Source: Acidobacteriota bacterium
Lineage (GTDB): Bacteria; Acidobacteriota; Thermoanaerobaculia; UBA2201
Direction of reading: 5' to 3'
DNA: 50,741 nt
NCBI GenBank assembly: GCA_037441225.1
Contig: JBBISU010000020.1
Coordinates: forward strand, 1 to 50,741
The translations under genes were made by a program, and so were the position numbers. Numbering within the stretch: the stretch's first letter is position 1; each line of letters starts with the position of its first letter. Below the pieces are notes generated by a model that was not told the origin of the DNA, did not search any database, and saw only the letters and a program-made list of their open reading frames with translations. Below are positions 4,390 to 29,278 of the stretch, in pieces.

Positions 4390-5219
4390 AATTTTTCTTC
4401 ATTTAATTTTCTTTTATAAAGAGGTGTTTTATCTTTTTTGTAAACTGATAATTCTTCTTCAAAAGTTTTTCTTTTTTCATTTTTATAAATTATACCAATT
4501 GGATATTTTTCTAAATTTAAAGTTATTTTTAATGCTTCTTCTTTATTATGAGAATCATAATTTTCTGGAAGATAAAAAGAATTTTCTTTAAACCATTGAT
4601 AGGTATTTAATTTATTGAAACTTACACAGGGTTGTAAAATTAAAATAAAAGAAAAACCTTTATGCTTTACTGCTTCTTTTATAATTTCTTTTGTTTTTTC
4701 TGTATCTGCTGCAAGTGCACAAGCAACAAAAGATGCGTCCTGGGAAATTGCTAAAGATAAAGCATTTAATGGATATTCAATTACTCCTTCCACTTGAAAA
4801 GGTGTCTTAAAACCAACTAAACTTGTAGGGGATGCTTGTCCTTTTGTTAAGCCATAGACCATATTATTATGTAAAAGAAGTGTAATATCTGGATTTCTTC
4901 TAATTGTATGAATAAAATGGTTTCCTCCTTCTGCAAGCATATCCCCATCTCCACCAATAGCAATTACTTTCATTTCAGGATTTACAACTTTTATTGCAGT
5001 TGCAGCAGGGAGGGCTCTACCATGTAAGCCATTGAAAAAATGGCTTTTGAAAAAATGTGGAAGCTTTGCTGCTTGTCCTATGCCTGATACAACTATCAAA
5101 TCTTCTGGTTTTAAATCTAATTCTATTGATGCCTTTTTTAAAGCTGTTAAAATTGGAAAATTTCCACAGCCAGGGCACCAGGTATTTTCAACATAAGGTT
5201 TGTCAAAAATATTTTCCAT
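4368..5219 (-). CDS. 2-oxoacid:ferredoxin oxidoreductase, beta (TPP-binding) subunit, KorB/PorB type
   Basis: N-terminal WCPGCGN and the TPP motif GGDGD...NN. Its start overlaps the stop of the response regulator (TAATG). Confidence 0.85.
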   Translation of the reverse strand: MENIFDKPYVENTWCPGCGNFPILTALKKASIELDLKPEDLIVVSGIGQAAKLPHFFKSHFFNGLHGRALPAATAIKVVNPEMKVIAIGGDGDMLAEGGNHFIHTIRRNPDITLLLHNNMVYGLTKGQASPTSLVGFKTPFQVEGVIEYPLNALSLAISQDASFVACALAADTEKTKEIIKEAVKHKGFSFILILQPCVSFNKLNTYQWFKENSFYLPENYDSHNKEEALKITLNLEKYPIGIIYKNEKRKTFEEELSVYKKDKTPLYKRKLNEEKLWSFLKP

Positions 5220-6556
5220 TAAATCTCCTCCTTATTTATTTTATATTTTTTTATTTTATACCTCAATTTATCTCTTGTTATTTTTAAAACCCTTGCTGCT
5301 TTTGAAACATTATAATTTGTATATTTTAAAGCATTTTTTATTAGTTTTATTTCCATATCTTCAAGGGAATAATAATCTTCTCTCTTTGCTTCACTTTTTT
5401 TGTCCTTGTCAAGGTTTAAATCTTCCAAATCAATGTATTCTTTATTAATTAATATCATTGTCCTTTCTATAACATTTCTAATTTCTCTTACATTCCCATA
5501 CCATTCGTATTCAAGCAAAGATATTTCTGCTTCTTTTGTAAGCCCTAATACCTTTTTATTAAATTTTTTATTATATAAATTAATAAAATGCTTAGCCAAT
5601 GGCAAAATATCTTCTTTTCTTTCCCTTAGGGGTGGTATATATATTGGAAAGATGGAAATCCTATAATATAAGTCTTCTCTGAATAGTTTTTCTTCAACTT
5701 CTTTTTTTAAGTCCCTGTTTGTAGCAGATATAAACATTACATCTGTTTGGATATCCCTCAATCCTCCCAACCTCTTAAAAACCCCATCTTCTAAAAATCT
5801 TAAAACCTTTGCTTGTAAATTTATTTTAAGTTCACCTATTTCATCAAGGAATAAAGTTCCATCATTTGCAAGTTCTAAAAGACCTTTTTTTTGTGTTTTT
5901 GCATCTGTAAAGGCACCCTTTTCATATCCAAAAATTTCACTTTCTAAAAGATTCTCTGGTACTGCTGCACAATTTAAAACCAAAAAAGGATTGTCCCTTC
6001 TTCTTGAGTGCAAGTGGATATATTTTGCTATTAAATCCTTTCCCGTTCCACTCTCTCCTTGTAGCAAGATTGTCCTTGCCTCTGATGTTGCAACAGTATG
6101 GGCTAATCTCAATACTTCTTGCATTTTATTAGAAGAAGCAATAATTTCAATATCCTCTTTATCTCTTTTTTTGTACATTAATAGTTCGTTTTTTAAAATA
6201 ATATGCTCTTCTGCTTTTTTTACATTAATTAATATTTCTTCTGCTTCTATTGGCTTTTCTAAATAATTAAAAGCACCCTTTTTTACACAATTTATGGCAT
6301 CTTTTATTTTTCCATAAGCAGTTAACATAATAAATAAGATATCTGGGTAACCAGAAATAGCCCATTCTAAGAGATCAATTCCAGTTCCATCAGGAAGATT
6401 TACATCCAATAAAACAATATCAGGTTCTTCCTTAATTATAATTTCTTTTGCTTCTTTTATTGTGCTGGATTCAAAGACATTATAACTTTCATTTCTTAAA
6501 AGTTTTGCAATAGAAATTCTAAATAGATTTTCATCATCAACAATTAATATTTTCAT
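5219..6556 (-). CDS. Sigma54-dependent response regulator (NtrC family: REC + AAA+ + Fis-type HTH)
   Basis: REC domain (ILIVDDE...VLLDVNLPD), Walker A GESGTGKD, sigma54-contact motif GAFTDA, Walker B LFLDEIGE and a C-terminal HTH (AARVLKITRDKLRYKIKKY). Confidence 0.9.
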   Translation of the reverse strand: MKILIVDDENLFRISIAKLLRNESYNVFESSTIKEAKEIIIKEEPDIVLLDVNLPDGTGIDLLEWAISGYPDILFIMLTAYGKIKDAINCVKKGAFNYLEKPIEAEEILINVKKAEEHIILKNELLMYKKRDKEDIEIIASSNKMQEVLRLAHTVATSEARTILLQGESGTGKDLIAKYIHLHSRRRDNPFLVLNCAAVPENLLESEIFGYEKGAFTDAKTQKKGLLELANDGTLFLDEIGELKINLQAKVLRFLEDGVFKRLGGLRDIQTDVMFISATNRDLKKEVEEKLFREDLYYRISIFPIYIPPLRERKEDILPLAKHFINLYNKKFNKKVLGLTKEAEISLLEYEWYGNVREIRNVIERTMILINKEYIDLEDLNLDKDKKSEAKREDYYSLEDMEIKLIKNALKYTNYNVSKAARVLKITRDKLRYKIKKYKINKEEI

Positions 6557-6583
6557 TTTAAAAAATTATACCATAAATTCATC

Positions 6584-6600
6584 TGGCATAAGTTTTGCAT
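6584..6600 (+). promoter_or_regulatory. Sigma54 (-24/-12) promoter P1
   Basis: TGGCAT-AAGTT-TTGCAT. GG at 6585-6586 and GC at 6597-6598 give the canonical spacing. It sits in the 52-bp gap divergent from the sigma54 activator gene. Confidence 0.7.
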
Positions 6601-6608
6601 AAAAATAA

Positions 6609-6926
6609 TTGATGAATAAAATTTTAATAATTGGAAGGGATTTAAATTTTGTTTGGGCATTAAAAAAATTGCTAAAAGGTGAAAATATTGAAATTGATCA
6701 TATTTTTACAATATCAGAAGCAAAGGTAAGATTTGAAAAAGGTAGATATGATTTAGTTATATTAGATAATTTAAATTTCTATGAGATGGAAATTTTTTTA
6801 AAAATTAAACCAGAAAATTTAAAAATTTTAACAATTGATATAGAAAATTCTAATTTTATTTCAATTCAGAAAGAAAACCCTTATCAAAATATGCTATTAT
6901 ATCTAAGAAATTTTTTAAGTTTTTAA
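6609..6926 (+). CDS. Stand-alone degenerate receiver (pseudo-REC) domain protein
   Basis: CheY-like pattern KILIIGRD...YDLVILDN. The acidic DD pair is replaced by GR and the phospho-acceptor-position Asp is retained. The likely start is ATG 6612. Confidence 0.5.
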   Translation: MMNKILIIGRDLNFVWALKKLLKGENIEIDHIFTISEAKVRFEKGRYDLVILDNLNFYEMEIFLKIKPENLKILTIDIENSNFISIQKENPYQNMLLYLRNFLSF

Positions 6927-6941
6927 AAAGAGAGGTTTCAA

Positions 6942-8579
6942 ATGGCTTTTTTTATAATTTTAATTCTTTATTTTTCTTCTATTGAAAAAAATCACCCTGC
7001 CCTTTTACAGGCAGAAAAAACAAATTGCAAAATTTGCCATATCAAAATACTTGAAGGAAAAATAAAGCATTCTCCAGTTGAAGAAAATTGCATAACCTGC
7101 CATATATATGAAAAAAAAGAAGGAAAGGATATAATAAAATTAACTAAAGCAATACCAGAACTCTGTTTTTCTTGTCATAGGGAACTTTCAGATTATAAAG
7201 AAAAAAAATCTCATATTGTCCTTGAAGAATGCTCAAGTTGCCATAATTTTCATTCATCAAATTTTGAAAAAATTCTTTTAAAAGAACTCCCAACTCTTTG
7301 TGAAGATTGTCATAATTTAAAGGAACTTAAAGAGAAAAGCCATAAAGGACAACCAATTAATGGAACAAATTGCATTGGTTGTCATAATCCCCATTTTTCA
7401 AAAAATGAAAAGTTGCTCAAAGGTAATTTTTTTCATAAACCCTTCATTGATTTGACCTGTGATGCCTGCCATAACAAAACCCTTACAAAAAATGTAAGGT
7501 TAAAAGCAGATGTGAAAACACTTTGTACTGCTTGCCATAGCAATATAGATTTAGAATTAAAGGAAAAAAGTTTGCATATTCCTTTTAGAGATGGAGAATG
7601 TGTAAGATGCCACAATCCTCACTTATCAGAAGAAAAAAATCTTTTAAAATTTAAGGAAAAAGATTTATGTATATCCTGCCATAAAGTTATTATAAATAAA
7701 AAATATATACATGAACCTTTAAAAGATGGCTGCCTTACCTGTCACAATGCCCATTCATCTCCAAAAGAATATCTTATATCAAAGGATATGATGGAAGATG
7801 AAAAAATATCTTCCTTTTGCTTTTCTTGCCATAATATGGATGAAAATTTAAAAAAAGCACATAGGAATTCAAATTTAAAAGAAATAAAATGTTCCATTTG
7901 TCACAATCCCCATTCTTCAGGTAATGAGAAATTTTTAAATGAAAACTCGGTTCATCCTGTCTTTGAAGATTGTGAAAGTTGCCATACCGAAGGAATAAAA
8001 ACAAGAAAAGAAGATCCAGAACTTTGTTTTGAATGCCATAGTGATTTTAAAGAAAAATTATCTTCTTTTAAGTTTAGCCATTCTGCCATTGAAAATGGAT
8101 GCCTCACCTGTCACACCCCTCATATATCAAATTTTAAACCAATTTTAAAAGGAGAACAAAAGAAAATATGCAATGATTGCCACCAAATCGAATTCCCTTT
8201 TGAGCATAAAGTAATTTCTCTTTTAGGTTGCTCTTCCTGCCATTTGCCTCATGGGGGAGAAAATAATAAATTCTTAAAAACAACTGGAAATGAATTATGC
8301 TTATCTTGCCATTTTTTTAAAGAATCAAAGGAAGAAAAAGAATTGGGATTAAAATTTCCAAAAATAAAATTAGATGATAAGATGGAAAAAGGACATCCTA
8401 CAATAAGCCATATTGTAAAAGGAAAAATGATGAAGAAAAAAGGGTTAACCCCACCAGAAAATATGGAAGAAATTTCCTGCCTTTCCTGCCATAATCCCCA
8501 TGGAGGTCAATCAAAGAACCTTTATTCTTTTGGCAAAAGAAACCAAAATGAGTTATGTCAATTGTGTCATCTCAAATGA
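6942..8579 (+). CDS. Multihaem c-type cytochrome with 21 CXXCH motifs (c7-type triheme repeat polymer-like), probably periplasmic
   Basis: I counted 21 CXXCH in 545 aa. They recur in a period of three, with many in the form CxxCHNPH. Hydrophobic N-terminus. Confidence 0.9.
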   Translation: MAFFIILILYFSSIEKNHPALLQAEKTNCKICHIKILEGKIKHSPVEENCITCHIYEKKEGKDIIKLTKAIPELCFSCHRELSDYKEKKSHIVLEECSSCHNFHSSNFEKILLKELPTLCEDCHNLKELKEKSHKGQPINGTNCIGCHNPHFSKNEKLLKGNFFHKPFIDLTCDACHNKTLTKNVRLKADVKTLCTACHSNIDLELKEKSLHIPFRDGECVRCHNPHLSEEKNLLKFKEKDLCISCHKVIINKKYIHEPLKDGCLTCHNAHSSPKEYLISKDMMEDEKISSFCFSCHNMDENLKKAHRNSNLKEIKCSICHNPHSSGNEKFLNENSVHPVFEDCESCHTEGIKTRKEDPELCFECHSDFKEKLSSFKFSHSAIENGCLTCHTPHISNFKPILKGEQKKICNDCHQIEFPFEHKVISLLGCSSCHLPHGGENNKFLKTTGNELCLSCHFFKESKEEKELGLKFPKIKLDDKMEKGHPTISHIVKGKMMKKKGLTPPENMEEISCLSCHNPHGGQSKNLYSFGKRNQNELCQLCHLK

Positions 8580-8589
8580 GAGGTAAAAT

Positions 8590-9597
8590 ATGAAAAAAAT
8601 TTTATTGTTTTTATTTATTGTTTCTTGTGGAACTTCTTCTATAAATGATCAAAAAAAAGAAATAAATATTTTATGGCCACCTCCTCCAGATGAGCCAAAA
8701 ATTAAATTTATAGAAGTTATAAGCTCAAGCAGAGATGTAGAAGGAAAAAAAGAAAAAAGTTTAAAAGATGTATTGTTAGGGATTGAACCTGAAAAGAGTT
8801 CTGTTTTTTTAGAAAGGCCTATGGATATTGCTGTAAATTCAAAGGGGGAGATTTTAGTGGTAGATGCAAAAGCAAAAGGGATCCATGTCTATGATAAAAA
8901 AAATAAAAAATTTAAACTTTATGGCACTTCTGGTATGGGTTCCCTTGCCTGGCCTAACTCAATTGATGTAGATGAAAATGATAATATTTATGTCTCTGAC
9001 CATTCTAAAAAAAAGGTATTTAAATATGATTCATCCGGTAAATTTCTTTTAAGTTTTGGGGACTTTGAAAACCCTGTCGGTGTCTGTGTTGATAATAAAA
9101 ACAAGAGATTGTTTGTTGTAGATTCAAAAAAGCATAATTTAAATTTATTTGATTTTAATGGAAATTTATTAAAGACAATTGGTGAAAGGGGGATAGAAGA
9201 AGGGCAGTTTAATTTTCCAACCTTTTGTGATGTAGATGAAAAAGGGAATATTTATATTGTAGATACTGGCAATGCAAGAGTCCAAATAATTGACGAAAAT
9301 TTTGAAGTTTTAGGTTCCTTTGGATCAATGGGTGTGCATATAGGTCAGTTTACAAGACCAAAAGGAATAGCTGTTGATAAATATGGAATAATTTATGTTG
9401 TTGATGGCGCTTTCAACAATGTTCAAATGTTTAATTCAGAATTACAATTTTTAATGCCTTTTTGTGAAGCAGGAAAAGAAGAAGGAAAATTAAATCTTCC
9501 TGTTGGCATTGAGATAGACAAAGAAGGATATATTTATGTAGCAGATTTTGGAAATGGAAGGATACAAATTTTTAAAGCTTTATATAAAATTTATTAA
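8590..9597 (+). CDS. NHL-repeat beta-propeller lipoprotein
   Basis: Lipobox FIVS-C at residues 10-13. Repeated NHL-type units (e.g. GQFNFPTFCDVDEKGNIYIVDTGNARVQII and GQFTRPKGIAVDKYGIIYVVDGAFNNVQMF). Confidence 0.85.
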   Translation: MKKILLFLFIVSCGTSSINDQKKEINILWPPPPDEPKIKFIEVISSSRDVEGKKEKSLKDVLLGIEPEKSSVFLERPMDIAVNSKGEILVVDAKAKGIHVYDKKNKKFKLYGTSGMGSLAWPNSIDVDENDNIYVSDHSKKKVFKYDSSGKFLLSFGDFENPVGVCVDNKNKRLFVVDSKKHNLNLFDFNGNLLKTIGERGIEEGQFNFPTFCDVDEKGNIYIVDTGNARVQIIDENFEVLGSFGSMGVHIGQFTRPKGIAVDKYGIIYVVDGAFNNVQMFNSELQFLMPFCEAGKEEGKLNLPVGIEIDKEGYIYVADFGNGRIQIFKALYKIY

Positions 9598-9664
9598 AAT
9601 TGGGCAAAAAACCCATTAGATGGGTGAAATAACCCATAATCTTTAAAATTCTCTCAAAATAACT

Positions 9665-9681
9665 TGGCATAAAAATTGCAT
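9665..9681 (+). promoter_or_regulatory. Sigma54 (-24/-12) promoter P2
   Basis: TGGCAT-AAAAA-TTGCAT. A strong AGGAGG Shine-Dalgarno lies at 9705-9710 and the ATG at 9718. Confidence 0.75.
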
Positions 9682-9717
9682 TATTTTTCTAAAACTTTAA
9701 AGAAAGGAGGTTTATAA

Positions 9718-10380
9718 ATGAAAAGATTATTTGCTTTATTTTTTCTAATTACATCTACCCTGGCATTGGCAGTTGTCCAGAACACTCCTCATGATCTGTC
9801 CGTTGGTTCAACTGGTCCCTTTAATCAAGCTGGATTTCCTGATACAAATGTAACAGCCATTTGTGTTTTCTGCCATACTCCTCACCAACCAAGTGGAGTT
9901 ACAACAGATCCTCTATGGAACCACACTCTTTCATCCACTGCTTCATACGGTGTTTATTCAAGTAACACATTAAATGCAACACCAGCTGACATTGGTGGAC
10001 AGCAAACAGTTTCTAATCTTTGTATGTCTTGTCATGATGGAACTGTTGGTGTTGGTTCCCAGTACAATGAACAAAATGGTGTTCCTGCTCCTTCTACTGC
10101 TGCCATAACAATTTTAAACACAAATCCTGCTTACCTTGGAACAGATCTTACAAATGACCATCCAATTAATTTTACTTACGATGCAGCCCTTGCCACTGCT
10201 GATGGTGAATTAAACACACCTGTTTCTACAAGCTGTGTTGATGCTGCTTGTAATGTTCCTTTATTTGGAGGAACTGTTCAGTGTGCTTCTTGTCATGATC
10301 CCCATGACAATACTTTGGCTCCATTTTTAACGCTTACACAAGTTGATAGTGCCCTTTGTACAACTTGCCATCAAAAGTAA
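9718..10380 (+). CDS. Small secreted tetrahaem c-type cytochrome (220 aa), nearly Lys/Arg-free
   Basis: Signal peptide ending in LALA-VV. Four CXXCH motifs (CVFCH, CMSCH, CASCH, CTTCH) and 9 His in total. After the signal peptide there are 0 Arg and only the C-terminal Lys. Thr/Ser/Asn/Gly/Ala-rich. Confidence 0.9.
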   Translation: MKRLFALFFLITSTLALAVVQNTPHDLSVGSTGPFNQAGFPDTNVTAICVFCHTPHQPSGVTTDPLWNHTLSSTASYGVYSSNTLNATPADIGGQQTVSNLCMSCHDGTVGVGSQYNEQNGVPAPSTAAITILNTNPAYLGTDLTNDHPINFTYDAALATADGELNTPVSTSCVDAACNVPLFGGTVQCASCHDPHDNTLAPFLTLTQVDSALCTTCHQK

Positions 10381-12049
10381 GAAGTTTTTTTTTAAATTTG
10401 GGGGTATAATTTTTTTGTACCCCCTTTTATTTTTTTTATTTCCTTTCAATTTAAAAGCGGAAGAGTTTTTTAAATTTTATGGCATCCTTAGCTATGAATA
10501 TAATAAGAGAAATTTTAATCTTTATTCAAAGTCATTGAAAGATGAAGAAATAAAAAACGCTGGTAGGCTTAGTTTAAATTTTAGTAGCTATTTTTGGAAT
10601 AAGAAATTATTGAAATACAATTTGAGTTTTTCAATTGAAAATGGAAAAATTTATAATAATAAAACTTCAGGGAAGTTAAATAATATTGGTTATGGAATAG
10701 AATTAAATTTTCTGCCCCATTCCAAGGATAAATTTTCTTTATTTTTACTCAAGCAAAATTACAATTATAATAAAATTTATGGCTTTGATTATGATAAAAA
10801 AATTGATGGCTATGGAATAGATATGCTTTATAAAAATTTTTATTCTTATTATAAAAAAACAGAGACAACAGTTCCTTTTTTTGAAGAAGATGAAAGGATT
10901 CAGGAAGAAGGGATTATAAAAAAATTATTTAAATTTAGCAATTTTTCTATTTATTCAGAAATAAGAAAAAATTATTATAATTTCAAATATTTTAAGAATT
11001 CACAGGATATAAATTCTTTTTTATCTTATTTCAATAAAACTGGAGAGGATTCAAGTTATAGTTTAAACTTCCTTTTTCAAAATTATAATTATAAAGATGA
11101 AAATTTCGGTTTAAGCCAGAAAAATAATTTTTTAAATTTATCAGGTGTATGGAATAAAAAAATATCAAATAAAACAGATTCAATTTTTACATTAAAAACA
11201 CATAGAAATTTTGAAGAATTTGAAAATTACAACTTGGAAGAAGTACTTAGAATAAGATTATCAAAAAATTTTAGATTGGAAACAATATCTGGGATTTTAA
11301 AGGTTTCTAAGCTAAATCCTTATATTGGTGGTGGCACAATTTATGAAAAACCTTTTTCACATTTTTCATTTTTTTCAAGGGTAGGTTTTCTTTTAAGACA
11401 AAACAAAGAATATGAGGGAAATGAAATTTCTCCTTATGCTAATTTTTCCTTAAATTTTTCAAAAAATAAAACTTCAACTTCCCTTGATTTTAATTATTAT
11501 GGCTTTTCCTATCAACAAAATGAAGCAAAACAATCTGATCTTCCATCTATTTTGGGAGAGTTTTCTTATAAAACTACAAATGATTTTTCTATTAAACATT
11601 CTTTAAGCTGGAATAATTCAGGGATTTATGGATTTTATTTGAAAAATATTTTTAATAAATATGAAAGAGAAAAGATAGAAGGTAATAAAGCAAATTTTAA
11701 ATCTTTTTTAAATCAAATTGATTTCAAAATTTATTCCTTTGCCTTTGGCTTTACTTTTTATAAGGGAGAGGAATGGGATTTTGAAAGGTTTAAAATTTCA
11801 ACTAAAGAAGCCCATATTTCTTTTACCCTTGGAAAAAACATAAGTTTTCAAGGCTCTTATCTTAAAAGATACAAAGAATTTTCCTCAAAAGGAGAAGAAG
11901 AAGAAGGAAACATTCAATTTGTATATCAAATAGGGAAGTTTAGTTTAAGGATAATTGGACAGAAGTTGAGTTATGATATTTTTGAACAAAAAAAGGATAT
12001 AAATTTTATAAGGATTTTACTTTTAAGGAGTTTTGGAAATGGCTTTTAA
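10343..12049 (+). CDS. Predicted outer-membrane beta-barrel (porin-like) protein
   Basis: Signal-like N-terminus (KSKKFFFKFGGIIFLYPLLFFLFPFNLKA-EE). Tyr/Phe/Asn/Ser/Gly-rich sequence with alternating short amphipathic stretches. C-terminus ...RSFGNGF ends in Phe as in OMP beta-signals. The start codon is uncertain: there is no ATG, and TTG 10343 or GTG 10349 overlaps the upstream gene. Confidence 0.6.
   Translation: MIVPFVQLAIKSKKFFFKFGGIIFLYPLLFFLFPFNLKAEEFFKFYGILSYEYNKRNFNLYSKSLKDEEIKNAGRLSLNFSSYFWNKKLLKYNLSFSIENGKIYNNKTSGKLNNIGYGIELNFLPHSKDKFSLFLLKQNYNYNKIYGFDYDKKIDGYGIDMLYKNFYSYYKKTETTVPFFEEDERIQEEGIIKKLFKFSNFSIYSEIRKNYYNFKYFKNSQDINSFLSYFNKTGEDSSYSLNFLFQNYNYKDENFGLSQKNNFLNLSGVWNKKISNKTDSIFTLKTHRNFEEFENYNLEEVLRIRLSKNFRLETISGILKVSKLNPYIGGGTIYEKPFSHFSFFSRVGFLLRQNKEYEGNEISPYANFSLNFSKNKTSTSLDFNYYGFSYQQNEAKQSDLPSILGEFSYKTTNDFSIKHSLSWNNSGIYGFYLKNIFNKYEREKIEGNKANFKSFLNQIDFKIYSFAFGFTFYKGEEWDFERFKISTKEAHISFTLGKNISFQGSYLKRYKEFSSKGEEEEGNIQFVYQIGKFSLRIIGQKLSYDIFEQKKDINFIRILLLRSFGNGF
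10400..10437 (+). terminator. Candidate intrinsic terminator/attenuator downstream of the tetrahaem gene
   Basis: GGGGGTA(10400-10406) pairs with TACCCCC(10418-10424), followed by TTTTATTTTTTTT. It starts 20 nt after the stop codon of the tetrahaem gene. Confidence 0.55.
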
Positions 12050-12899
12050 TTTTTTTATCTTAATATTTTTTAGTATTTTTGAATTTGAAAAGGTCTTAGA
12101 AAGTCCCTATGATTTTAAAGAAAAAAGCTTTTTAAAAAATTTCTTTTTTGGAAAAGGAAATATAGAAAAATTTTCATCCCCTTATTCAATAGTAATTTTT
12201 GGCAAAAATATTGCCATTTGTGATGGTGAAAGGATTTTTTATGTTTCAAAAAATAAAGTTTTGGAAATAATTTTTCCTTTTAAATCTTTTTGTATGGATG
12301 TTGCTTTAAATGATGAGTATATTTTTGCTTCCTTTCCACAAGAAGGGATTGTGGCTTATTATGATTTAAATAAAAAAAATTGGGAAAAGGTTCCTTTTAC
12401 CTTTGAAAAACCAAATGGCTTATATTATGATTATAAAAATAATGAATTATATGTCGTTGATACGCAAAGTCATAAGATTTATAAAGGATATGAAAAAAAT
12501 TTAATCCCTTTTATAACAGATGGTTTAAACTTCCCAATTGATTTAACTATTTCAAGAAATGGGAGGATTTATATAACAGACAGTTTTGACTATGAAGTTG
12601 AGGTAAGGGATGGGGATGGAAATTTTATTTTTTCTTTTGGTAAAGGAGGTAATAAATTTGGGAACTTTCAATCCTTAAGGGGCATTGCAGTTGATGAAGA
12701 TGAAAGAGTATATGTAAGTGATACACAAAGTAGCTGGATACAGGTCTTTTCAAAAGAAGGAAAGCTTTTATATGTCTGGTCTGACAAAAAGATTTCCCAT
12801 CCAAATTTTTTATCTTATGAAAAAGGAATCCTTTATGTCACTGATTTATTTTCAAAATTAATCTTTTTAATTAAAATTAATATACCAGAAGAAAAATGA
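12033..12899 (+). CDS. NHL-repeat beta-propeller protein (exported)
   Basis: Hydrophobic N-terminus. NHL-type units such as GNFQSLRGIAVDEDERVYVSDTQSSWIQVFSKEGK and IYITDSFDYEVEVRDGDGNF. Confidence 0.75.
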   Translation: MEMAFNFFILIFFSIFEFEKVLESPYDFKEKSFLKNFFFGKGNIEKFSSPYSIVIFGKNIAICDGERIFYVSKNKVLEIIFPFKSFCMDVALNDEYIFASFPQEGIVAYYDLNKKNWEKVPFTFEKPNGLYYDYKNNELYVVDTQSHKIYKGYEKNLIPFITDGLNFPIDLTISRNGRIYITDSFDYEVEVRDGDGNFIFSFGKGGNKFGNFQSLRGIAVDEDERVYVSDTQSSWIQVFSKEGKLLYVWSDKKISHPNFLSYEKGILYVTDLFSKLIFLIKINIPEEK

Positions 12900-14389
12900 A
12901 AAGACTAATATTTTTAATTTTTTTTCCTTCTTTTCTACTTTCCCAATGGGAAGTAAAATATACCTACCACAATCTTTCATCTTCAGGTTTAGGAAAAATT
13001 AAGTCAGAAAAGACAAAGGATATCTGTGGCTTTTGTCACACACCACACAATGCAGATCCAGAAGTACCTCTTTGGGGCTTTAAAATTTCCCCAGCAAATT
13101 ATAACTTATATTTTTCTCCTTCTCTGGATTCTGTATTAGAGCAACCAGGTGGTTCTTCCGTATTATGTCTTTCCTGCCATGATGGAACAATTGCTTTTTT
13201 GAGCAAAAATAATGAAAAAGAGATTTTACCAAAAAGCTTCAAGGGCTCTATGGATTTTGATTTAAGTGGCTCCCATCCAATTTCCTTTTTAATTGATGAT
13301 TCTTTTATAAGCCAAAACAATAAAAAGGATATGCTCTTAAAAAATTTAAAGGAAATTAAAATTTCCTTTGATGAAAAGGCAATAAAAGATGATAATAAAA
13401 TGGAGTGTACAACCTGTCATGATCCCCATAAAAACACCTTTCCTGAAGGGGAAGTGCCTTTTGGCAGAATGGAAAAATTTAATATCCTTTGCACATCCTG
13501 TCATATTTCACAAATTTTAAAACATGAAGACAAATTTTATCTGCCAAAGGAATGCATAACCTGTCATAAAGCACATGGAGAAAAGGGAACAATGCTTTTA
13601 AAAACAAAAGAACCTTCTCTTTGTTTTGAATGCCATGGGAATTCCGTTGATAGAGAAAAGGCATTAAAAGATGGTATGATCTCCTATAATTCTAACCCAA
13701 AAGAAGTTCTGTACTCTTTTTCACTTCCTTATAACCATCCTATATCTAATGGTTGCACAATTTGCCATAAATTGCATAAAGTTGAAAAAGAATATGAAAT
13801 TTGTGAAGAATGCCATAAAAATAATCCTATTTATTCTTCACCAGCATCACAGCATCCAGTATATCCCTCTGAAAATGTATTAAAATGTTCTAATTGTCAT
13901 AGAGGTAGTGACGAAAATTTAGGAAAAGGTGTCCATGGCTCCCTTTATAAAGGGCTTGTCTATAAAAATTATGAAACAGAAGATGGGAAAGGAGAAAGTA
14001 AAGAAACCTATGCTTTTTGCTATTCCTGCCATAAAAGAGAAGAGATATTAGAAAATAGTAAGTTTAGTTTGCATAAAAAACATATTGTTGATGAAAGAAC
14101 CTCTTGCTATACCTGTCATTCAAGCCATGGGTCTATTTTTTTGCCACATCTTTTAACCTTTGAAGATAAAATTAGGGAGGATAGGATAGGACCCACTAGT
14201 GATGGGATTTTAAGATATGAAAAATTTGGGGATGGAAGTGGTGCTTGCTATCTTACTTGCCATAATTTTGAACATAATGGTTTGGTTTATGGAGAAAATG
14301 CTCTTATCAAAAATTCAGAAATTCTAATAAGAACAAAATTTGGAATAAAAAAAACAAAATCCAAATTAAAAATATTAAAAGGGGAATAA
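12896..14389 (+). CDS. Multihaem c-type cytochrome, 11 CXXCH + 1 CX3CH
   Basis: Signal peptide. I counted 11 CXXCH plus CYLTCH (14246-14263). The N-terminal four-haem module is collinear with the 220-aa tetrahaem. Confidence 0.9.
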   Translation: MKRLIFLIFFPSFLLSQWEVKYTYHNLSSSGLGKIKSEKTKDICGFCHTPHNADPEVPLWGFKISPANYNLYFSPSLDSVLEQPGGSSVLCLSCHDGTIAFLSKNNEKEILPKSFKGSMDFDLSGSHPISFLIDDSFISQNNKKDMLLKNLKEIKISFDEKAIKDDNKMECTTCHDPHKNTFPEGEVPFGRMEKFNILCTSCHISQILKHEDKFYLPKECITCHKAHGEKGTMLLKTKEPSLCFECHGNSVDREKALKDGMISYNSNPKEVLYSFSLPYNHPISNGCTICHKLHKVEKEYEICEECHKNNPIYSSPASQHPVYPSENVLKCSNCHRGSDENLGKGVHGSLYKGLVYKNYETEDGKGESKETYAFCYSCHKREEILENSKFSLHKKHIVDERTSCYTCHSSHGSIFLPHLLTFEDKIREDRIGPTSDGILRYEKFGDGSGACYLTCHNFEHNGLVYGENALIKNSEILIRTKFGIKKTKSKLKILKGE

Positions 14390-14393
14390 ATGC

Positions 14394-14410
14394 TGGCATA
14401 AGAATTGCAT
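14394..14410 (+). promoter_or_regulatory. Sigma54 (-24/-12) promoter P3
   Basis: TGGCAT-AAGAA-TTGCAT, starting 5 nt after the upstream stop codon and ending 17 nt before ATG 14427. Confidence 0.75.
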
Positions 14411-14426
14411 ATATTTTTATAGAGAT

Positions 14427-17400
14427 ATGAGATATAAAGTTTTATTTTTGCTGCTTTTTTCTTTTGAAATTTTTGGAAACCAAAATCCAATTATAAATTC
14501 TTTTTCTGCTTCTTCTTATACTCTTTTGCCTGGTGCAACTGCTGATTTAAACTTAGAAGCTTATGACCCTGATTGTCCTTCCAGTTGCACAAGTGGTTGT
14601 GGTCAATATATAAGGGCAGATCTTACAAACTGGTCATCAAATGGAGGAAGTTTTTTAAATATAAATAATGGCACTTCTTCTTCACCTTATAATGCATCTG
14701 CACAATGGCAGGCGCCTTTGCAGGAAGGAACATATAATATTTCTATACAAATCTCTGACAGTGGCACTTTTCTTTGTGGTGGAAGGTTATCTGCTTCTTC
14801 AACAATCCAAATCACTGTAACCCAAAATTTAAACAACCCTCCTGTTATAAATTCATTTTCTATATCAGAAAATCCAATTCTTTTAAATTCTTCTGCAATT
14901 TTAAATGTTTCTGCTTATGATCCTGATGGAGATCCAATATCTTATGAATTTTCAACAAACCTTGGGGAAATTCACCCAATCTCAGAAGGAGTTGCAGAAT
15001 TTATTGCACCTTCCACACCTGGTATTGCAAATATAAGCTGCAAAGTTCAAGACGACAAAGGTGCTTTTACAGTAAAAGATTTAAAAGTTTACATAACAGG
15101 TGTGGTGCCAGAAAAATCTATTAAAATGGAAGGATTAACTAATTATAAAATTTCTTCTGATAATTATGGGTTTGTTTATGTCCCAACAAATAAAAATTTT
15201 ATTTATGTTTACAATTTAAATTATGGAAGTTTATTAAAAAAAATATTAGCTCCTTTTGTTGTTGCTGTTTCAATTGATTGGAATGGAAATATCTTTGCAT
15301 CTTTTGGAAATAATTTAAAATTATTAAGTCGAGAAGGGGATACCATTTTAACATTTAATTTACAAGGAAATTTTGAAGATATAACAGATGTCTTTTCTGA
15401 TAATTTAAACCATAAATATCTTTGCCTTTTATCATCTCAAGGAAAAATTGCAATCTTTGATGAAAATGGAAATCTTGAAAGAATTTTTGGTGGAATAGGT
15501 GATGGAGAAGGAAACTTTAAAAAAGCATCAGGTTTGGCTGTATATCAAAATGAAATTTATGCAGGAGATGTAGGGCATGGAAGGGTAAATGTCTTTGATT
15601 ACAATGGAAATTTTATAAGGTCCTTTGGGCAAAGGGGTGGAGAAGATGGAGAATTTGTGCAAATTAGCAGTTTAGATTTTGATTTGGATGGAAATTTATA
15701 TGTTATTGATACCTTTAAAAGCCAGGCTTCAGTTTTTGATTTTAATGGAAATTTAAAGGAAATTTTTGGGAAATATGGAAATGAAACTGGGAGCTTTATC
15801 CAGCCAATTTCTATTTCTTCTAATAAAAATTTTGGAAAAATTTTAGTTTTAAATTCAGGTAAAAATTCAGTTGAAATTTTTAATTTATATTCTAATTCAA
15901 ATCCTCCTGCAAATAATATACCTTCTGTGCCAGAGCCAATTTCCCCTTTAAATGGAACATCTTTTCCTAAAAATAGCAATGTAGAACTAATTTTAAGGAA
16001 AAGTTTTGACCCTGATTTTCAAGAACTTTATTATTCTTTTGAACTATATGAAGAAAAAAATAACAAAGATGAGCTCCTTGCAAGCTGGTTTATAAAAGGA
16101 GAATCCAATGAAATATCTGTTGATGCAACTCCTTTTTTATCAAAAGCAGGAAATTATAAATGGAGGGGAAGGGCTTTTGATTCAATTGATTGGTCAGAAT
16201 GGTTTGAATTTCAAAGTTTTACAATAAATACAGGCAATCCAAATAATCCACCATCTATGCCAAGTTTGCTTTATCCACAAGAAGGTTCAGAAGTAGATAC
16301 CTTGGAGCCAACCCTTACAATTTCAAATTCTAAAGATCCTGATAATGATCCTTTGTATTACATCTTTGAAATATACTTACACAATGGAACAGAAGGGCTT
16401 TTTATGGTTTATAAATCAGATCCAATTTCTCAAGGAAATGGATTGACTTCTTTTAAAGTTCCAGAAGGGTTACTTTCTTTAAGCCAACAAGTTTTTTGGA
16501 GGGCAGCTGCTTTTGATGGATACCTTTATAGCGAATATACACCTTACTTTACTTTCTTTACGCCACCCCTTCCCATACCTTCAAGTGAAGAAGTTGGCAA
16601 TCTTCCTGAAGGGGATTCTACAAGACCTTATATTTTAAATTTTGAGATAGGACCAAATGGTGAAGATACAAAGGTTTATTTCCAAATTTTTGGAAGTTTT
16701 AATGAAAATGAAATTTTCCTAATTGTAAATAATAATTATAAACATCCTTTAGGTCCTTACAATAATGAAAGCTGGTCTTTTACAGAATCTTTTTTAATTC
16801 CAAAGGAAGAGTTAAAAAATAATGAAAATAATAGGATCTCTTTTGAAAATCAAACAAACAAAAATTGGGGTTTAAGAAAAGTAACTTTAAGTCCACCTGA
16901 TAAAATAACTCTTAATGCAATATATTATAATACTGTGATTGATTTGCAAATCTCAGCAAAGTGCAAAAACTCAGAAAAGATAGAGATTTATAAAGCAATT
17001 GGAGAACCCAATTATTTTAATAAAGTAAATGAAATAAATTGTTTTGAAGGAATATTAAGAGACACAGGGCTTCAAAATGGAATAACTTATTTTTATTTTG
17101 CTATTAAAAAAGATAGCGAGGGCTTTGAATCAGAAAGATCAAATATTGTTTTTGGAATACCACAAGCAACAAGCACAACACCTGTAACTGATTTGAGAAT
17201 TATAAAAGAAGGTAATAATGTGAAAATTTTATGGACACCTATAACAAATGAGCCAGCAATCCAGTATTATGAAATTTATAAGGATGATTTTTCAAACTTT
17301 TTCCCTGATACCCAGAACTTTACAAATCTTTATACAACAAAAAGTCCTTATGAAGGGTCTTTTATTGATTATGATGAATTGTTAAACCCTGAAAATATTT

Positions 17401-17450
17401 GGTACATAATTTATCCCCTTTCTTTAAATGGTGAAAGAGGTATGCCATGA
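14427..17450 (+). CDS. Large secreted modular protein: two Ig/PKD-like modules, central NHL propeller, two ~100-aa FN3-like modules, C-terminal beta-rich region; no haem motif
   Basis: Signal peptide. Repeated INSFS...L..A.L.L.AYDPD modules, NHL units (GEGNFKKASGLAVYQNEIYAGDVGHGRVNVFDYNGN and others), and a repeated P..G......P.L......DPD...LYY.FE.Y module at about 15920-16570. Confidence 0.75.
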   Translation: MRYKVLFLLLFSFEIFGNQNPIINSFSASSYTLLPGATADLNLEAYDPDCPSSCTSGCGQYIRADLTNWSSNGGSFLNINNGTSSSPYNASAQWQAPLQEGTYNISIQISDSGTFLCGGRLSASSTIQITVTQNLNNPPVINSFSISENPILLNSSAILNVSAYDPDGDPISYEFSTNLGEIHPISEGVAEFIAPSTPGIANISCKVQDDKGAFTVKDLKVYITGVVPEKSIKMEGLTNYKISSDNYGFVYVPTNKNFIYVYNLNYGSLLKKILAPFVVAVSIDWNGNIFASFGNNLKLLSREGDTILTFNLQGNFEDITDVFSDNLNHKYLCLLSSQGKIAIFDENGNLERIFGGIGDGEGNFKKASGLAVYQNEIYAGDVGHGRVNVFDYNGNFIRSFGQRGGEDGEFVQISSLDFDLDGNLYVIDTFKSQASVFDFNGNLKEIFGKYGNETGSFIQPISISSNKNFGKILVLNSGKNSVEIFNLYSNSNPPANNIPSVPEPISPLNGTSFPKNSNVELILRKSFDPDFQELYYSFELYEEKNNKDELLASWFIKGESNEISVDATPFLSKAGNYKWRGRAFDSIDWSEWFEFQSFTINTGNPNNPPSMPSLLYPQEGSEVDTLEPTLTISNSKDPDNDPLYYIFEIYLHNGTEGLFMVYKSDPISQGNGLTSFKVPEGLLSLSQQVFWRAAAFDGYLYSEYTPYFTFFTPPLPIPSSEEVGNLPEGDSTRPYILNFEIGPNGEDTKVYFQIFGSFNENEIFLIVNNNYKHPLGPYNNESWSFTESFLIPKEELKNNENNRISFENQTNKNWGLRKVTLSPPDKITLNAIYYNTVIDLQISAKCKNSEKIEIYKAIGEPNYFNKVNEINCFEGILRDTGLQNGITYFYFAIKKDSEGFESERSNIVFGIPQATSTTPVTDLRIIKEGNNVKILWTPITNEPAIQYYEIYKDDFSNFFPDTQNFTNLYTTKSPYEGSFIDYDELLNPENIWYIIYPLSLNGERGMP

Positions 17451-18478
17451 GGTTTTTAATAATTATCCTTTTATTTCCATGTATAATTTTTTCTGTTGAT
17501 CCACCCCATTGGTCTTCTGCTTCCACTTATGAAGATTGTGATTCATCCTGTCATATTGTCCATTCTTCCCTTGGCTCTTCTTTAACTCAAGCAACTTCTA
17601 ATGTAAATTCCTGCCTTGCTTGCCACAATCCCACAGGACAGGCATCAAATCTTCCAATATCCTTAGAAGAAAGAGCAAATCCAAATTTTGGTGGAAGGCA
17701 TCATTCTTTTGATGTAAATGCAGTAAATCTAAGCTATGGGGCTGATTTGCCTCAAAATAATCAAATGCTTCCAAGGATTATGGAATCAAAAATTGTATGC
17801 TCTACCTGCCATAATCAACACACAGCTTCTTCTTCATTAGGTGGAACTGCAAGGATATCACAAGCAAGAAAAATTGCAGGAAGTGGGACTGGTACAATGA
17901 TATCTGGTGGAAATTATACAGGGACAAATGGAATATGGTATTTAATTGAAATTGATTCCCAAGGAAGTCAAGCAACAGCAACTTTTAAATGGTCAAAGGA
18001 CAATGGTTTGACATGGGTTCAACAAAATGTTAATTGTGGTAATGGAAATCCAGTGAATTTAGATAATGGAACACAAGTAACCTTTTCTGGTGGTGCAGGT
18101 GCTTTTCAATTAGGTGATAGGTGGGAATTTTATGCTTCTTATCCTTTTTTAAGAGTAAAATTAGATTCAGGAGATAACATAGCAGGTGATAGGTTTTGCA
18201 GAGATTGCCACAGGTCAATGGTTATGACCCATATGGATGTTGAAAATTATGATGGTACAAAGAAAAGCCATCCCATTGGAATTGTTTTAAATGCAAATGG
18301 AATGGGCTATGATAGGACTTCTCCCCTTGATGGAAATGGAAATCCTCAAGGTGGGCTTGGGGAAGATAATATAAAGTCCAATAACTTAAAATTAGATGGT
18401 AATGGGAATTTGCAGTGTTTAACTTGCCATAATGTCCATTATGCAGATTCAAATACAATAACAGAGGATCTGCCATGA
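17447..18478 (+). CDS. Secreted c-type cytochrome, 4 CXXCH + 1 CX3CH, with a central non-haem beta-rich insert
   Basis: Signal peptide. CLACH, CSTCH, CRDCH and CLTCH plus CDSSCH (17537-17554). Gly/Thr/Asn/Ser-rich. Confidence 0.85.
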   Translation: MRFLIIILLFPCIIFSVDPPHWSSASTYEDCDSSCHIVHSSLGSSLTQATSNVNSCLACHNPTGQASNLPISLEERANPNFGGRHHSFDVNAVNLSYGADLPQNNQMLPRIMESKIVCSTCHNQHTASSSLGGTARISQARKIAGSGTGTMISGGNYTGTNGIWYLIEIDSQGSQATATFKWSKDNGLTWVQQNVNCGNGNPVNLDNGTQVTFSGGAGAFQLGDRWEFYASYPFLRVKLDSGDNIAGDRFCRDCHRSMVMTHMDVENYDGTKKSHPIGIVLNANGMGYDRTSPLDGNGNPQGGLGEDNIKSNNLKLDGNGNLQCLTCHNVHYADSNTITEDLP

Positions 18479-21400
18479 AAAAGTTTTTATTTTTTCTATT
18501 AATTTTCCCTTTACATTCTTTTTCTGATACATTAAATTATACCTTTAATTTTGCTTCTTCTTCTGAAGGTTTTACTGCAACTACTGGCGGACAATCAACA
18601 GCTTCCTTTGATTCAGGAAATGGAAATCCAGCCGGCTCTATTTATACCCAGATTACAGGGAGAAGAAGGACAAATTCAAATTATTGGGAATGGACAGGGA
18701 CTTTTGAAGATTTGGGTGTCCCTTCTTCATCAATTATTACAGCCATCCAGCTTACAGGGGCATATAACAGATGCACAGTTTACTCAACAGGGCAACAATC
18801 CACAGCAGGTCCTTATGAGCTTAGAGATTCAACTGGGGCAACAGTCCTTGCAACTCTATGGGCAGGAAGGGATTTTTCAGCTGTAGATCCCTCTTGGGTT
18901 TTTGTATCTGGTTCAAACCAAATCCTTTCTGATATTCCATCAAATACTACAATTAAAATAAGATTGAACAATACTTTAAGGACTGGAAATTCAAATTCCG
19001 CACGGGTTACCCTTTATGATGACCAAATTTCTTTGACAATTACTTATCAATCAGCAGCAAATAATTATGTAACAATTGGTACAATTTCTGCAAATGTGAA
19101 TAGCTGTACTCAAATAACTGCCCAAGCAACCTTCACAGATGATGCAAATGGTAATAGCACTACAACCTTTGAATATAATACTTCAAACAACTGGCCTGGA
19201 ACAGTTGCTTGTTTAAATTTAACAGGTTCTTCTCCAAGAGAATGTATAATACAAAATTTACAAAATGACACAGATTACTGGATAAGGGTAACTTTTAATG
19301 ATATTGATGGGGTTGTTGGAACAAACCCACAGGTTATAGGACCTTACAGAACATACAATTGCCAAACAGTTGTATCCAGTGCAACAGCAAATGTTAATTC
19401 TTGCAGTCAAATTACAATTTCTGCTCCTTTTTCAGGTGATTGGAACCAAAATAGTTCAACAAACTTTGAAATCCAGCAAAATTGTACTGGAAGTTTTTCT
19501 TCCCTTTGCTCAAATGTTTCAGGTTCAAGTCCAAGGGTTTGTGTTGCAAACTCTTTGATAGAAAATACAAATTATTGCTTTAGAATAACTTTTCAAGATA
19601 CTGATGGAGTTGTTGGTACAAACCCACAAACAATTGGTCCTTATACAACCCCTCCTTGTACACAAACAGGTACAACAATAATTCAAAATAATGTATATAT
19701 AGAAAATTGCAGACAACTTAAAGCCCTTGGATTTTTTTCAGGAGATGGTGATTTAGATGGCTCACTGCTGGTTGAATATAATAACATAAATAACTGGCCA
19801 GGAAACATTGCTTGTAATCAAATAACAGGGATTTCACCAAGGCAATGCTTGATCTCAAACCTTACAGCTGATACTGACTGGTGGGTAAGGTTTACTTATA
19901 CAGACCCTGATGGAGTTTTAGGGACAAATCCAGAAGTTTTGGGTCCTTTCCACACACCCCTTTGTGGGGCAGATCAAGCAAGCCCAACAATTACAGTTCT
20001 TTCTCCAAAAAAGGGAGCTATAATTGGTGGGACAGAAAGGTTAAAAATACAGGCTTATGATGCAGGTGGAATTTCTTCTGTTTCTGTTTCAATAAATGGA
20101 GGATCTTATCAAAGTGCTACCTTAAATGGAAATTATAATTGTGGTACAAATTGTGGAATTTATGAATATGATTTTGATACAACCCTTTTATCAAATGGAG
20201 AAACAACAATAACAATTAAAGCACAAGATACCTCTTCAAATTTAAGTTTTACAAGCATCAGTGTTAATATAAAAAATTCAGGTGGAAAACCCCAAGGCTC
20301 TGGTCTTCTTTTAAGAAGAAGCCATGGGAGCCAAATTTGTATTGATTGCCATAACCTTCCTTCCCATTCCAGCCAACACACTGGCACAAAATATGGTTCT
20401 TGGTCTATTGACTGCTTAACCTGTCATACACCTCATTATACAACAAATATTTACCTTATAAATGAATATATAAGGACACCAAATAGTGGTTTGAAAAATG
20501 TAATTTTCAGAGTAGATGATAAAACAGGTGGAACAAATCCACAATTAAGCTATATTGGTGCTTATGATATAAATGGCATACCTTATGATGATGGTATATG
20601 TGAGGTCTGCCATACAAAAACAAACCATTATAGAAACGATGCATCAGGTGGTGACCATACTCACAATCAAAATTCAAGGTGTGTAAATTGCCATCAACAC
20701 TCAAAGGGGTTTGCAGCAGCAGGTTGTAATGGATGCCATAAAGCACCACCCAGTGTTGGGAAGCATTTAAAGCATGATGAAGTTGGACAAGTTCCTTCAT
20801 CTTATACTGAAACTTCTTCCCATGCAACTCAAACCCAATATGGTTTTTCTTGTGCAAAGTGCCATTCTGGGGCCCATACAAATGATACCCATTCTGGAAC
20901 TATAACAGATCCTTATCAAGTGGAAGTAATTTTTGATTCAACCCAAGACCCAAAAAATCCTTTAGGTACTTATAGCCAAAAATACCCAGATGCTTTAGAT
21001 CAAGGAACTGATACAACAAAATACTGGTCTTGGACCCAATCAATTGCAGGAACTGATGGAAATTGTTCAAACCTTTACTGCCATTCAAATGCAAACCCTG
21101 TGGGTGGAAATGTCTCTTATACAACTGTTAAATGGAATGAAACAAATGCAACAAATTGCCAGTCCTGCCACAATACTATTGCAAGGGATGATAGTGGAAA
21201 TTTGACTGATTTGTCATTAAAACATGGAAAGCATATCTCTTATAATGGCGAAGCTTCAACATATAATTATACCTGTGATGAATGCCATAGCTTAACAATT
21301 GTTGACAATTCAAAAGCTCCTTGGCTTTTAGATTCAAATGATTTAAAGGATAAAAGATACCATGTCAATGGCTTAAAAGATGTCTCCTTTTCTCCAACTG

Positions 21401-29277: not shown

Positions 29278-29278
29278 A

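Follow-up and report, generated by a model that had tools for sequence, protein, structure and literature searches.

The window analysed here is a stretch of 50,741 nucleotides (contig JBBISU010000020.1 of assembly GCA_037441225.1, an Acidobacteriota bacterium) that carries an island of multihaem cytochrome genes. One of them, which we call OmcE220, encodes a tetrahaem cytochrome that an earlier note, made from the sequence alone, had proposed as the subunit of an extracellular cytochrome filament, or nanowire. We find by sequence comparison that OmcE220 is a clear relative of OmcE, the tetrahaem protein from which metal-respiring bacteria build conductive filaments on the outside of their cells. 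Homology is established over its full length, and we consider it likely that the protein serves as the major subunit of an extracellular filament of the OmcE type. The OmcE family itself is known; what stands out at this locus is a Lys/Arg-free extreme of the family, a conserved layout of sigma-54 promoter, ribosome-binding site and attenuator, and an OmcE-like paralogue within the same cluster. The subunit gene and the signals around it are the following:

9718-10380, + strand: OmcE220, OmcE-family tetrahaem cytochrome and putative major nanowire subunit (PDB-chain match, 61-sequence alignment, composition)
9601-9636, + strand: two small palindromes in tandem (TGGGC-N6-CCCA, TGGGT-N7-CCCA), 30-65 nt upstream of P2's -24 element
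9665-9680, + strand: P2, sigma-54 -24/-12 element TGGCATAAAAATTGCA (exact consensus match)
9703-9710, + strand: Shine-Dalgarno sequence AAAGGAGG, 7 nt before the OmcE220 ATG
10400-10437, + strand: intrinsic terminator/attenuator, a 10-bp GC-rich hairpin plus T-tract (folding, conservation)

The open reading frame (ORF) at 9718-10380 (+) encodes 220 aa, comprising a signal peptide (residues 1-18) and a mature part of 202 aa; the N-terminus, MKRLFALFFLITSTLALA ahead of VV, resembles a Sec signal peptide by eye. A scripted count gives four CXXCH motifs (C49, C102, C189 and C214), nine His and ten Cys. The mature protein has no Arg, a single Lys (the C-terminal K220) and a single Met, and OmcE220 is acidic (13 Asp and 2 Glu, isoelectric point ~4.4) and rich in Thr, Ser, Asn, Gly and Ala, which together make up 45% of the whole chain. 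These figures agree with the composition described in the earlier note. Two further cysteines, C173 and C178 (STSCVDAACNV), lie outside every CXXCH and are unconserved across the family; they may form a sublineage-specific disulfide.

When OmcE220 was searched with phmmer against all PDB chain sequences (E up to 10), two chains matched over the full length, 7tfs_A (E 9.4e-41, query residues 5-220 against chain residues 12-232) and 9yuq_N (E 1.7e-32). The first belongs to the OmcE filament of Geobacter sulfurreducens, according to passages in two sources (PMC11936953; PMC12954529), and the second to filaments of the OmcE homologue of Desulfuromonas soudanensis WTL, arranged in an antiparallel bundle (bioRxiv 10.1101/2025.10.22.684050). 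Beyond these two, no PDB chain scored better than E = 0.5, and OmcS, OmcZ, the archaeal nanowires, c3 and NrfB gave no match up to E = 10. By BLASTP, OmcE220 is 42% identical to G. sulfurreducens OmcE over the full length; the OmcE proteins of G. sulfurreducens and D. soudanensis, both proven filament formers, are 41% identical to each other (bioRxiv 10.1101/2025.10.22.684050). Among Pfam and NCBIfam models, the generic Paired_CXXCH_1 alone matched above cutoff, and the NrfH model scored 24.8 against a cutoff of 134.2. The earlier note had named a class that took in OmcE, OmcS and archaeal subunits; the OmcE part of that assignment holds over the full length, and the resemblance to OmcS, OmcZ and the archaeal filaments is, as judged from these searches, functional and not one of family membership.

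The haem ligands are conserved. In the alignment of 61 OmcE220-family sequences, H25, H53, H56, H106, H148, H193, H196, H218 and K220 are invariant, and the four invariant His that lie outside the CXXCH motifs (H25, H56, H148 and H196) all align with His of OmcE; the ninth His, H69, is unconserved and corresponds to an Arg in OmcE. These eight invariant His fit the published observation that OmcE homologues keep four CxxCH motifs and four other His (bioRxiv 10.1101/2025.10.22.684050), and they bear out the suggestion, made from the His count, that all four haems could have bis-His ligation. According to a passage in PMC12954529, the neighbouring subunit donates the His that completes one haem of OmcE, and the retention of eight ligand His in OmcE220 fits this mode of ligation.

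Lys and Arg together account for 1.4% of OmcE220 versus 5.8-20.5% of the other 37 window ORFs of at least 150 aa, and the contrast with Lys-rich neighbours that the earlier note had drawn is thus borne out. Because the G+C content at third codon positions (GC3) of the gene, 0.195, is the same as in the remaining window (0.13-0.25, with an overall G+C of 29%), this composition is a selected one in a native gene and not imported; horizontal transfer, considered as its cause, was ruled out on these grounds. The available sequences indicate that Lys/Arg depletion is a family-wide trend of which OmcE220 is the extreme: among the 120 closest homologues, drawn from many phyla, the mature proteins have a median of 4 Lys plus Arg (range 1-12), while G. 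sulfurreducens OmcE has 13 and D. soudanensis OmcE ~6 of ~197 residues (hand count from the alignment). At loci with two paralogues, the first, between the NHL and barrel genes, is poor in Lys and Arg, with a net charge of -7 to -17, and the second, OmcE-like paralogue has 8-19 of these residues and is always richer in them than the major subunit. Every solved cytochrome nanowire is net negative, with a formal charge of -3 to -11 per subunit (PMC11936953), and the formal charge of OmcE220 is ~-14 per subunit. The other window proteins that are both Lys/Arg-poor and rich in Thr, Ser, Asn and Gly are confined to the P3 operon described below, including a giant Ig/fn3 cytochrome. We infer that this composition marks the extracellular, highly acidic members of the system. 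One can speculate that Lys and Arg are avoided for protease resistance, for repulsion by the anionic cell surface or for affinity to positive Fe(III) oxides. Its single Lys and lack of Arg make OmcE220 a natural variant well suited to studying the effect of surface charge on a cytochrome wire.

The signals around the gene had been read in the earlier note as the layout of a protein made in excess. This reading holds, and promoter, ribosome-binding site and terminator are all kept in related contigs. The predicted promoter is an exact -24/-12 match, and P1, P2 and P3 (the other two listed below) are the sole exact sigma-54 matches on the + strand; they are near-identical (CTGGCATAAnnnTTGCAT), intergenic and face cluster genes. 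The gap of 120 nt 5' of the OmcE220 gene is the only sizeable intergenic gap of the cluster, and the Shine-Dalgarno sequence within it, AAAGGAGG, is the sole AGGAGG ahead of a start codon in the island, in keeping with its description as the strongest one there. The hairpin at 10400-10424 with its T-tract is the top terminator-like site within 6400-14600; it folds at -17.6 kcal/mol (z = -3.85), and none of 200 shuffles folds as well.

For comparison, 82 loci from many phyla were fetched by homology (loci and contigs are cited by L numbers), and the conservation of the expression signals was followed in four related contigs, L081, L083, L084 and L085, at 82-85% protein identity. The P2 core (GGCA...TTGCAT) and the ribosome-binding site are invariant across these contigs while the spacer DNA diverges. 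Moreover, a GC-rich hairpin and U-tract follow the subunit gene in all four, with changes in the inner stem that are compensatory (GUAU/GUAC, GCAC/GUGC, GUAAA/UUUAC and GCUU/AAGC). Both here and in the four relatives, the terminator and T-tract lie inside the frame of the barrel gene, coding for Gly-Gly and the poly-Phe core of its signal peptide. Since the terminator falls within the 5' part of the barrel gene's coding sequence, the OmcE220 gene is best seen as a strongly expressed first cistron with attenuated read-through. The idea that it forms a unit of its own therefore stands for the promoter, ribosome-binding site and hairpin with T-tract, but not for its separation from the gene that follows. 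In this arrangement, the terminator would set the ratio of subunit to machinery. Sigma-54-like sites also occur 5' of 9 of 33 small OmcE orthologues, against ~0.4 expected by chance, and the genes concerned include ones from Acidobacteriota, Nitrospirae and a Geobacter metagenome-assembled genome (MAG). The palindrome pair at 9601-9636, which is conserved in the relatives, may serve to bind an activator or may weakly terminate the NHL gene upstream of it; considered as an activator site common to the three promoters, the pair was not found in the P1 and P3 promoter regions.

Besides the subunit gene, the island and its surroundings contain the following features:

5219-6556, - strand: NtrC-type sigma-54 activator with receiver, AAA+ and HTH_8 domains (Pfam Sigma54_activat E 1e-65)
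6584-6599, + strand: P1, sigma-54 promoter before orf105, cyt545 and NHL335 (exact consensus match)
6609-6926, + strand: orf105, a 105-aa ORF between P1 and cyt545 (position and size kept)
6942-8579, + strand: cyt545, a 21-haem, Lys-rich cytochrome of MtrA/DmsE type (Paired_CXXCH_1 in 10 stretches, TIGR03508)
8590-9597, + strand: NHL335, an NHL-repeat beta-propeller with a lipobox-like FIVSC N-terminus (Pfam NHL E 1e-31)
10343-12049, + strand: OMP568, a large predicted outer-membrane beta-barrel of ~566 aa (model, Foldseek, iterated hidden Markov models)
12033-12899, + strand: NHL288, a second NHL-repeat beta-propeller (Pfam NHL E 4e-17; position conserved)
12896-14389, + strand: cyt497, an 11-haem cytochrome with an N-terminal OmcE-like module (BLASTP against OmcE220)
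14394-14409, + strand: P3, sigma-54 promoter before the 1007-aa propeller protein and the 343-aa and 1965-aa cytochromes (exact match)
14427-24372, + strand: P3 operon, encoding a 1007-aa propeller/Ig-like protein, a 343-aa cytochrome and a 1965-aa cytochrome
27255-31228, + strand: two ResB/CcsA pairs in a row, downstream of the cytochrome island, for System II cytochrome c maturation (Pfam ResB, Cytochrom_C_asm)
31627-33009, - strand: HAMP/HisKA sensor kinase whose predicted periplasmic domain carries a CQNCH haem-c motif (Pfam; motif from the translation)
32996-34438, - strand: B12-binding radical SAM gene adjoining the sensor kinase

Starting from the activator on the - strand, the order is P1, orf105, the 21-haem cytochrome, an NHL propeller, P2, OmcE220 and the terminator, followed by the ~566-aa protein, the other NHL propeller, the 11-haem cytochrome and P3, and finally by the 1007-aa propeller protein and the 343-aa and 1965-aa cytochromes. 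The three sigma-54 promoters divide the island into three units, and P3 begins 5 nt past the stop codon of the 11-haem cytochrome. The whole nine-gene arrangement is kept in L083-L085. The published hallmarks of an omcE cluster are one or more beta-propeller lipoproteins, a large outer-membrane beta-barrel and two multihaem cytochromes, and the segment 6942-14389 (cyt545, NHL335, OmcE220, OMP568, NHL288 and cyt497) equals the smallest omcE cluster of the same preprint (bioRxiv 10.1101/2025.10.22.684050). Gene context thus adds to the homology with 7tfs_A and 9yuq_N in support of the nanowire-subunit proposal.

Within this cluster, cyt545 scores 200 bits against the DmsE-family model TIGR03508 (cutoff 192.2), and a 21-haem homologue occupies its position in L001, L002, L005, L006, L037 and L081-L085; it is a putative electron feeder, either periplasmic or trans-barrel. 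In 79 of the 82 loci, the OmcE homologue has an NHL gene beside it; in the window, NHL288 lacks an N-terminal Cys. For orf105, counterparts of 103-116 aa exist in L081 and L083-L085, and no Pfam or NCBIfam model matched it. In the P3 operon, the 1965-aa cytochrome has ~28 haem motifs together with Big_7 and fn3 matches, and the proteins are low in Lys plus Arg (5.8-6.9%) and rich in Thr, Ser, Asn and Gly like OmcE220, which suggests that they are a set of extracellular proteins. This operon is also kept in L083-L085, with a giant cytochrome of 2222 aa there.

OMP568 had no match in Pfam or NCBIfam. Its gene overlaps the 3' end of the OmcE220 gene and starts with TTG or GTG without a visible Shine-Dalgarno sequence, and its relatives share the C-terminus ...LRNF. 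A word-indexed homologue search gave 5 sequences, beyond which local iterated hidden Markov models were used; with two independent seeds, these gave 23 and 49 loci in which an OMP568-family homologue adjoins an OmcE-type gene. Foldseek matches of a low-confidence model were all outer-membrane barrels (such as FimD, OccK, LptD and FhuA), with template-modelling (TM) scores of at most 0.26. As these are class-level matches at TM-scores of 0.26 or less, the result is taken to indicate an outer-membrane beta-barrel only, and not an usher. OMP568 is thus a putative outer-membrane beta-barrel that could act in secretion, as an anchor or as a conduit pore.

Our analysis also uncovered an OmcE-like module in the second cytochrome of the cluster. 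Residues 1-203 of cyt497 align end to end with OmcE220 (31% identity, E 2e-27, BLASTP), and this module, ~200 aa after the signal peptide, retains the complete set of eight ligand His, one of which lies close to the mature N-terminus; the Lys content of cyt497 is normal (10.6%). At other loci, a paralogue of this type is likewise placed after the second NHL gene. It is fused to a 7-haem cytochrome in the window, L003, L004, L043 and L044, and occurs in a separate form, as a ~230-aa tetrahaem protein followed by a 7-haem cytochrome, in L001, L006, L038 and probably L005; the locus summaries of L002 and L018 end at the ~230-aa paralogue. Which component stops, starts or tips an OmcE filament is a question raised in bioRxiv 10.1101/2025.10.22.684050, where the Desulfuromonadia operons examined held no OmcE-like candidate for a stopper, tip or base. 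On the basis of its sequence, cyt497 is a candidate minor, anchor or cap subunit. More tentatively, we propose as one possibility a two-subunit system in which OmcE220 forms the bulk polymer and the cyt497 module is built in once, as initiator/anchor or terminator. In such a system, the 7-haem tail of cyt497 would wire the base of the filament into the beta-barrel and the periplasmic chain, and the two NHL propellers, each preceding one paralogue, would be dedicated assembly factors for each subunit type. If this holds, cyt497 supplies an OmcE-like stopper, tip or base from within the operon, and nanowire initiation and anchoring become directly testable; in any case, the fusion of an OmcE-like module with a 7-haem cytochrome provides a concrete anchor or cap candidate for these filaments.

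Genes for regulation and haem attachment lie close by. The sigma-54 activator is divergent from the cluster and also adjoins it in L081, L083 and L084, and a homologue of the sensor kinase adjoins the OmcE cluster in L081. The haem-motif kinase is a probable partner of the NtrC-type activator and may be a redox sensor that feeds it. In L081 (2839-4636), the B12-binding radical SAM gene stands together with an ABM-domain gene between activator and kinase, directly upstream of the OmcE cluster. The ResB/CcsA pairs of the window have a parallel in Desulfuromonadia, where the omcE cluster is inserted beside resB/ccsB (bioRxiv 10.1101/2025.10.22.684050). Taken together, a compact cluster free of glycosylation genes, with three sigma-54 promoters, an NtrC-type activator and a haem-motif sensor kinase, makes a clean regulatory example.

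These elements suggest how an OmcE220 filament could be produced. As judged from their motifs, the sigma-54 promoter would be activated by the divergent NtrC-type regulator, probably under the haem-containing sensor kinase, and the strong Shine-Dalgarno sequence together with the terminator within the next signal peptide would yield much subunit and little downstream machinery. By what is known of the families, the precursor would be exported via Sec and receive its four c-type haems from System II ResB/CcsA. Gene association suggests that the subunit crosses the outer membrane through the OMP568 barrel, or docks there, with the help of the NHL propellers. By homology to the solved OmcE filaments, polymerisation would be head-to-tail, with one of H25, H56, H148 and H196 completing a haem of the adjacent subunit to give a continuous, insulated haem chain. 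Electrons may be supplied by cyt545, by cyt497 or by both, and the OmcE-like module of cyt497 could join the base of the filament.

Several points weigh against a filament. Whether cytochrome filaments work as long-range conduits is disputed even for Geobacter (PMC11077965), and surface loops vary and are poorly conserved among OmcE homologues (bioRxiv 10.1101/2025.10.22.684050). An MtrA-like cytochrome and a barrel would equally suit a porin-cytochrome conduit with a non-polymeric surface partner. For the barrel itself, the AlphaFold2 model, built from a 5-sequence alignment, has ~27 strands at low confidence (predicted local distance difference test, pLDDT, 44.4), and hidden Markov models gave no link between the OMP568 family and a 761-aa ORF downstream of omcE in L023, the Geobacter MAG. 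The earlier note had proposed comparing both sequence and structure: the sequence half gave OmcE over the full length, but the AlphaFold2 model of OmcE220 without haems (61-sequence alignment) reached a pLDDT of 46.9 with almost no regular secondary structure, and a Foldseek search of the PDB with this low-confidence model returned no match. Since the OmcE fold is ~80% coil and haem-dependent, the failed model is not evidence against homology.

The most serious alternative is that OmcE220 does not polymerise and is instead a monomeric or oligomeric surface cytochrome, docked on a conduit of OMP568 and cyt545, that passes electrons to minerals. It would then resemble MtrC in MtrCAB, a surface cytochrome that sits on a conduit. 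That cyt545 clears the DmsE/MtrA-family cutoff and that the barrel gene directly follows and overlaps the subunit gene both speak for such a complex. In addition, polymerisation has been shown for only two members of a family that counts 4,547 representatives at 50% identity, and the OmcE homologue is fused to a long multihaem extension in 49 of the 82 loci, so that the module is not always a free filament subunit. However, both structurally characterised free members of ~200 aa form filaments, and OmcE220 keeps all eight ligand His in an architecture that leaves one haem in need of a partner's His. The window cluster also agrees with the cluster by which published work picked out nanowire-competent homologues (bioRxiv 10.1101/2025.10.22.684050), and the high-expression layout, with a terminator before the barrel, implies subunit in excess over the pore, which a 1:1 complex does not need. 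We therefore regard a purely docked OmcE220 as unlikely. That OmcE220 is an ordinary periplasmic tetrahaem shuttle of the c3, c7 or NrfB type is highly improbable, as the weak scores that hint at it (Cytochrom_c3_2, 23.2 bits, and Cytochrome_C7, 21.9) lie below the curated cutoffs (25 and 24.8) and span only the last ~35 residues with the paired CXXCH, whereas the full-length match is OmcE, no c3 or NrfB structure was found in the PDB search, and the composition is unlike that of the Lys-rich putative periplasmic proteins of the same cluster.

A search for OmcE-family proteins gave 6,688 matches (E up to 1e-3, clusters at 90% identity). A 2025 survey lists OmcE homologues in five phyla, Acidobacteriota not among them (bioRxiv 10.1101/2025.10.22.684050), and a 2026 peat preprint mentions 'OmcE-like' cytochromes in electron-transfer clusters of Acidobacteriota and Verrucomicrobiota. 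We found full-length homologues labelled Verrucomicrobiota, Bacteroidota, Ignavibacteriota, Calditrichota, Gemmatimonadota and others, and these further phyla make the OmcE family broader than reported. In species-level genomes, the closest homologues of OmcE220, at 55-57% identity, belong to Thermoanaerobaculia or Acidobacteriota, and the window's MutS protein shares 77% identity with its counterpart in a MAG labelled Thermoanaerobaculia, with the next tier at 49% or less. By these sequence affinities the host is an uncultured lineage of 29% G+C nearest to Thermoanaerobaculia (Acidobacteriota), and the range of OmcE-type nanowires would come to include this very AT-rich lineage. Small five-haem cytochromes beside barrels in other loci were also checked as possible OmcE220 orthologues: most are only weakly related and have normal Lys/Arg content, and a few are true five-haem OmcE-like proteins. 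Three small five-haem proteins are clear OmcE relatives at E 1e-23 to 1e-30 (L052 3553-4221, L057 2272-2904 and L076 755-1414); they are poor in Lys and Arg, end in CH-x-K and probably belong to the '5-haem OmcE-like' family of the 2025 preprint.

Among known systems, the closest is OmcE of G. sulfurreducens (GSU0618, PDB 7TFS; Wang et al. 2022, Nat Microbiol, as cited in a passage of PMC12954529), which shares with OmcE220 ~200 mature residues, four CXXCH motifs, four aligned extra His and a CH-x-K end. The two differ in Lys plus Arg (13 versus 1), in the Arg that OmcE has in place of H69 and in the C173/C178 pair of OmcE220. The OmcE homologue of the Geobacter MAG L023, like OmcE220, has an NHL beta-propeller gene directly upstream. 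Geobacter clusters contain long sets of glycosylation genes, and their OmcE carries putative glycans (bioRxiv 10.1101/2025.10.22.684050), whereas no glycosyltransferase genes were seen beside the OmcE220 cluster. In this regard, the window is closer to D. soudanensis, whose DSOUD_2954 (9YUQ; Petersen et al. 2025) is a full-length and likewise Lys/Arg-poor homologue encoded in a 'minimal' cluster without glycosylation genes, of a type that occurs among marine, alkaliphilic and thermophilic genera (bioRxiv 10.1101/2025.10.22.684050). Because the loops at the bundling interface of 9YUQ are unconserved among homologues, antiparallel bundling cannot be extrapolated to OmcE220. The window cluster also differs from the Desulfuromonadia operons in its OmcE-like paralogue cyt497, none being reported there.

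OmcS (6EF8), OmcZ (8D9M) and the archaeal tetrahaem nanowires PcECN and AvECN (8E5F, 8E5G) are likewise extracellular polymerised multihaem cytochromes, and OmcS and the archaeal filaments share with OmcE an insulated chain of stacked and T-shaped haems (PMC12954529). OmcS has 6 haems and OmcZ 8, and none of these proteins, the archaeal ones included, has detectable sequence similarity to OmcE220. A more distant comparison, by analogy only, is with chaperone-usher pili (FimD/PapC), an analogy also raised in the discussion of the preprint (bioRxiv 10.1101/2025.10.22.684050). The likeness extends to FimD appearing among the top Foldseek matches of the low-confidence barrel model, at TM-scores of 0.2-0.26. 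Unlike chaperone-usher systems, the cluster has no periplasmic Ig-like chaperone, and subunits would be joined by haem-His ligation, not by donor-strand exchange. What the two systems have in common is a major-subunit gene with strong expression signals, an attenuating terminator, a large outer-membrane barrel gene and, with cyt497 as the candidate here, paralogues for minor subunits.

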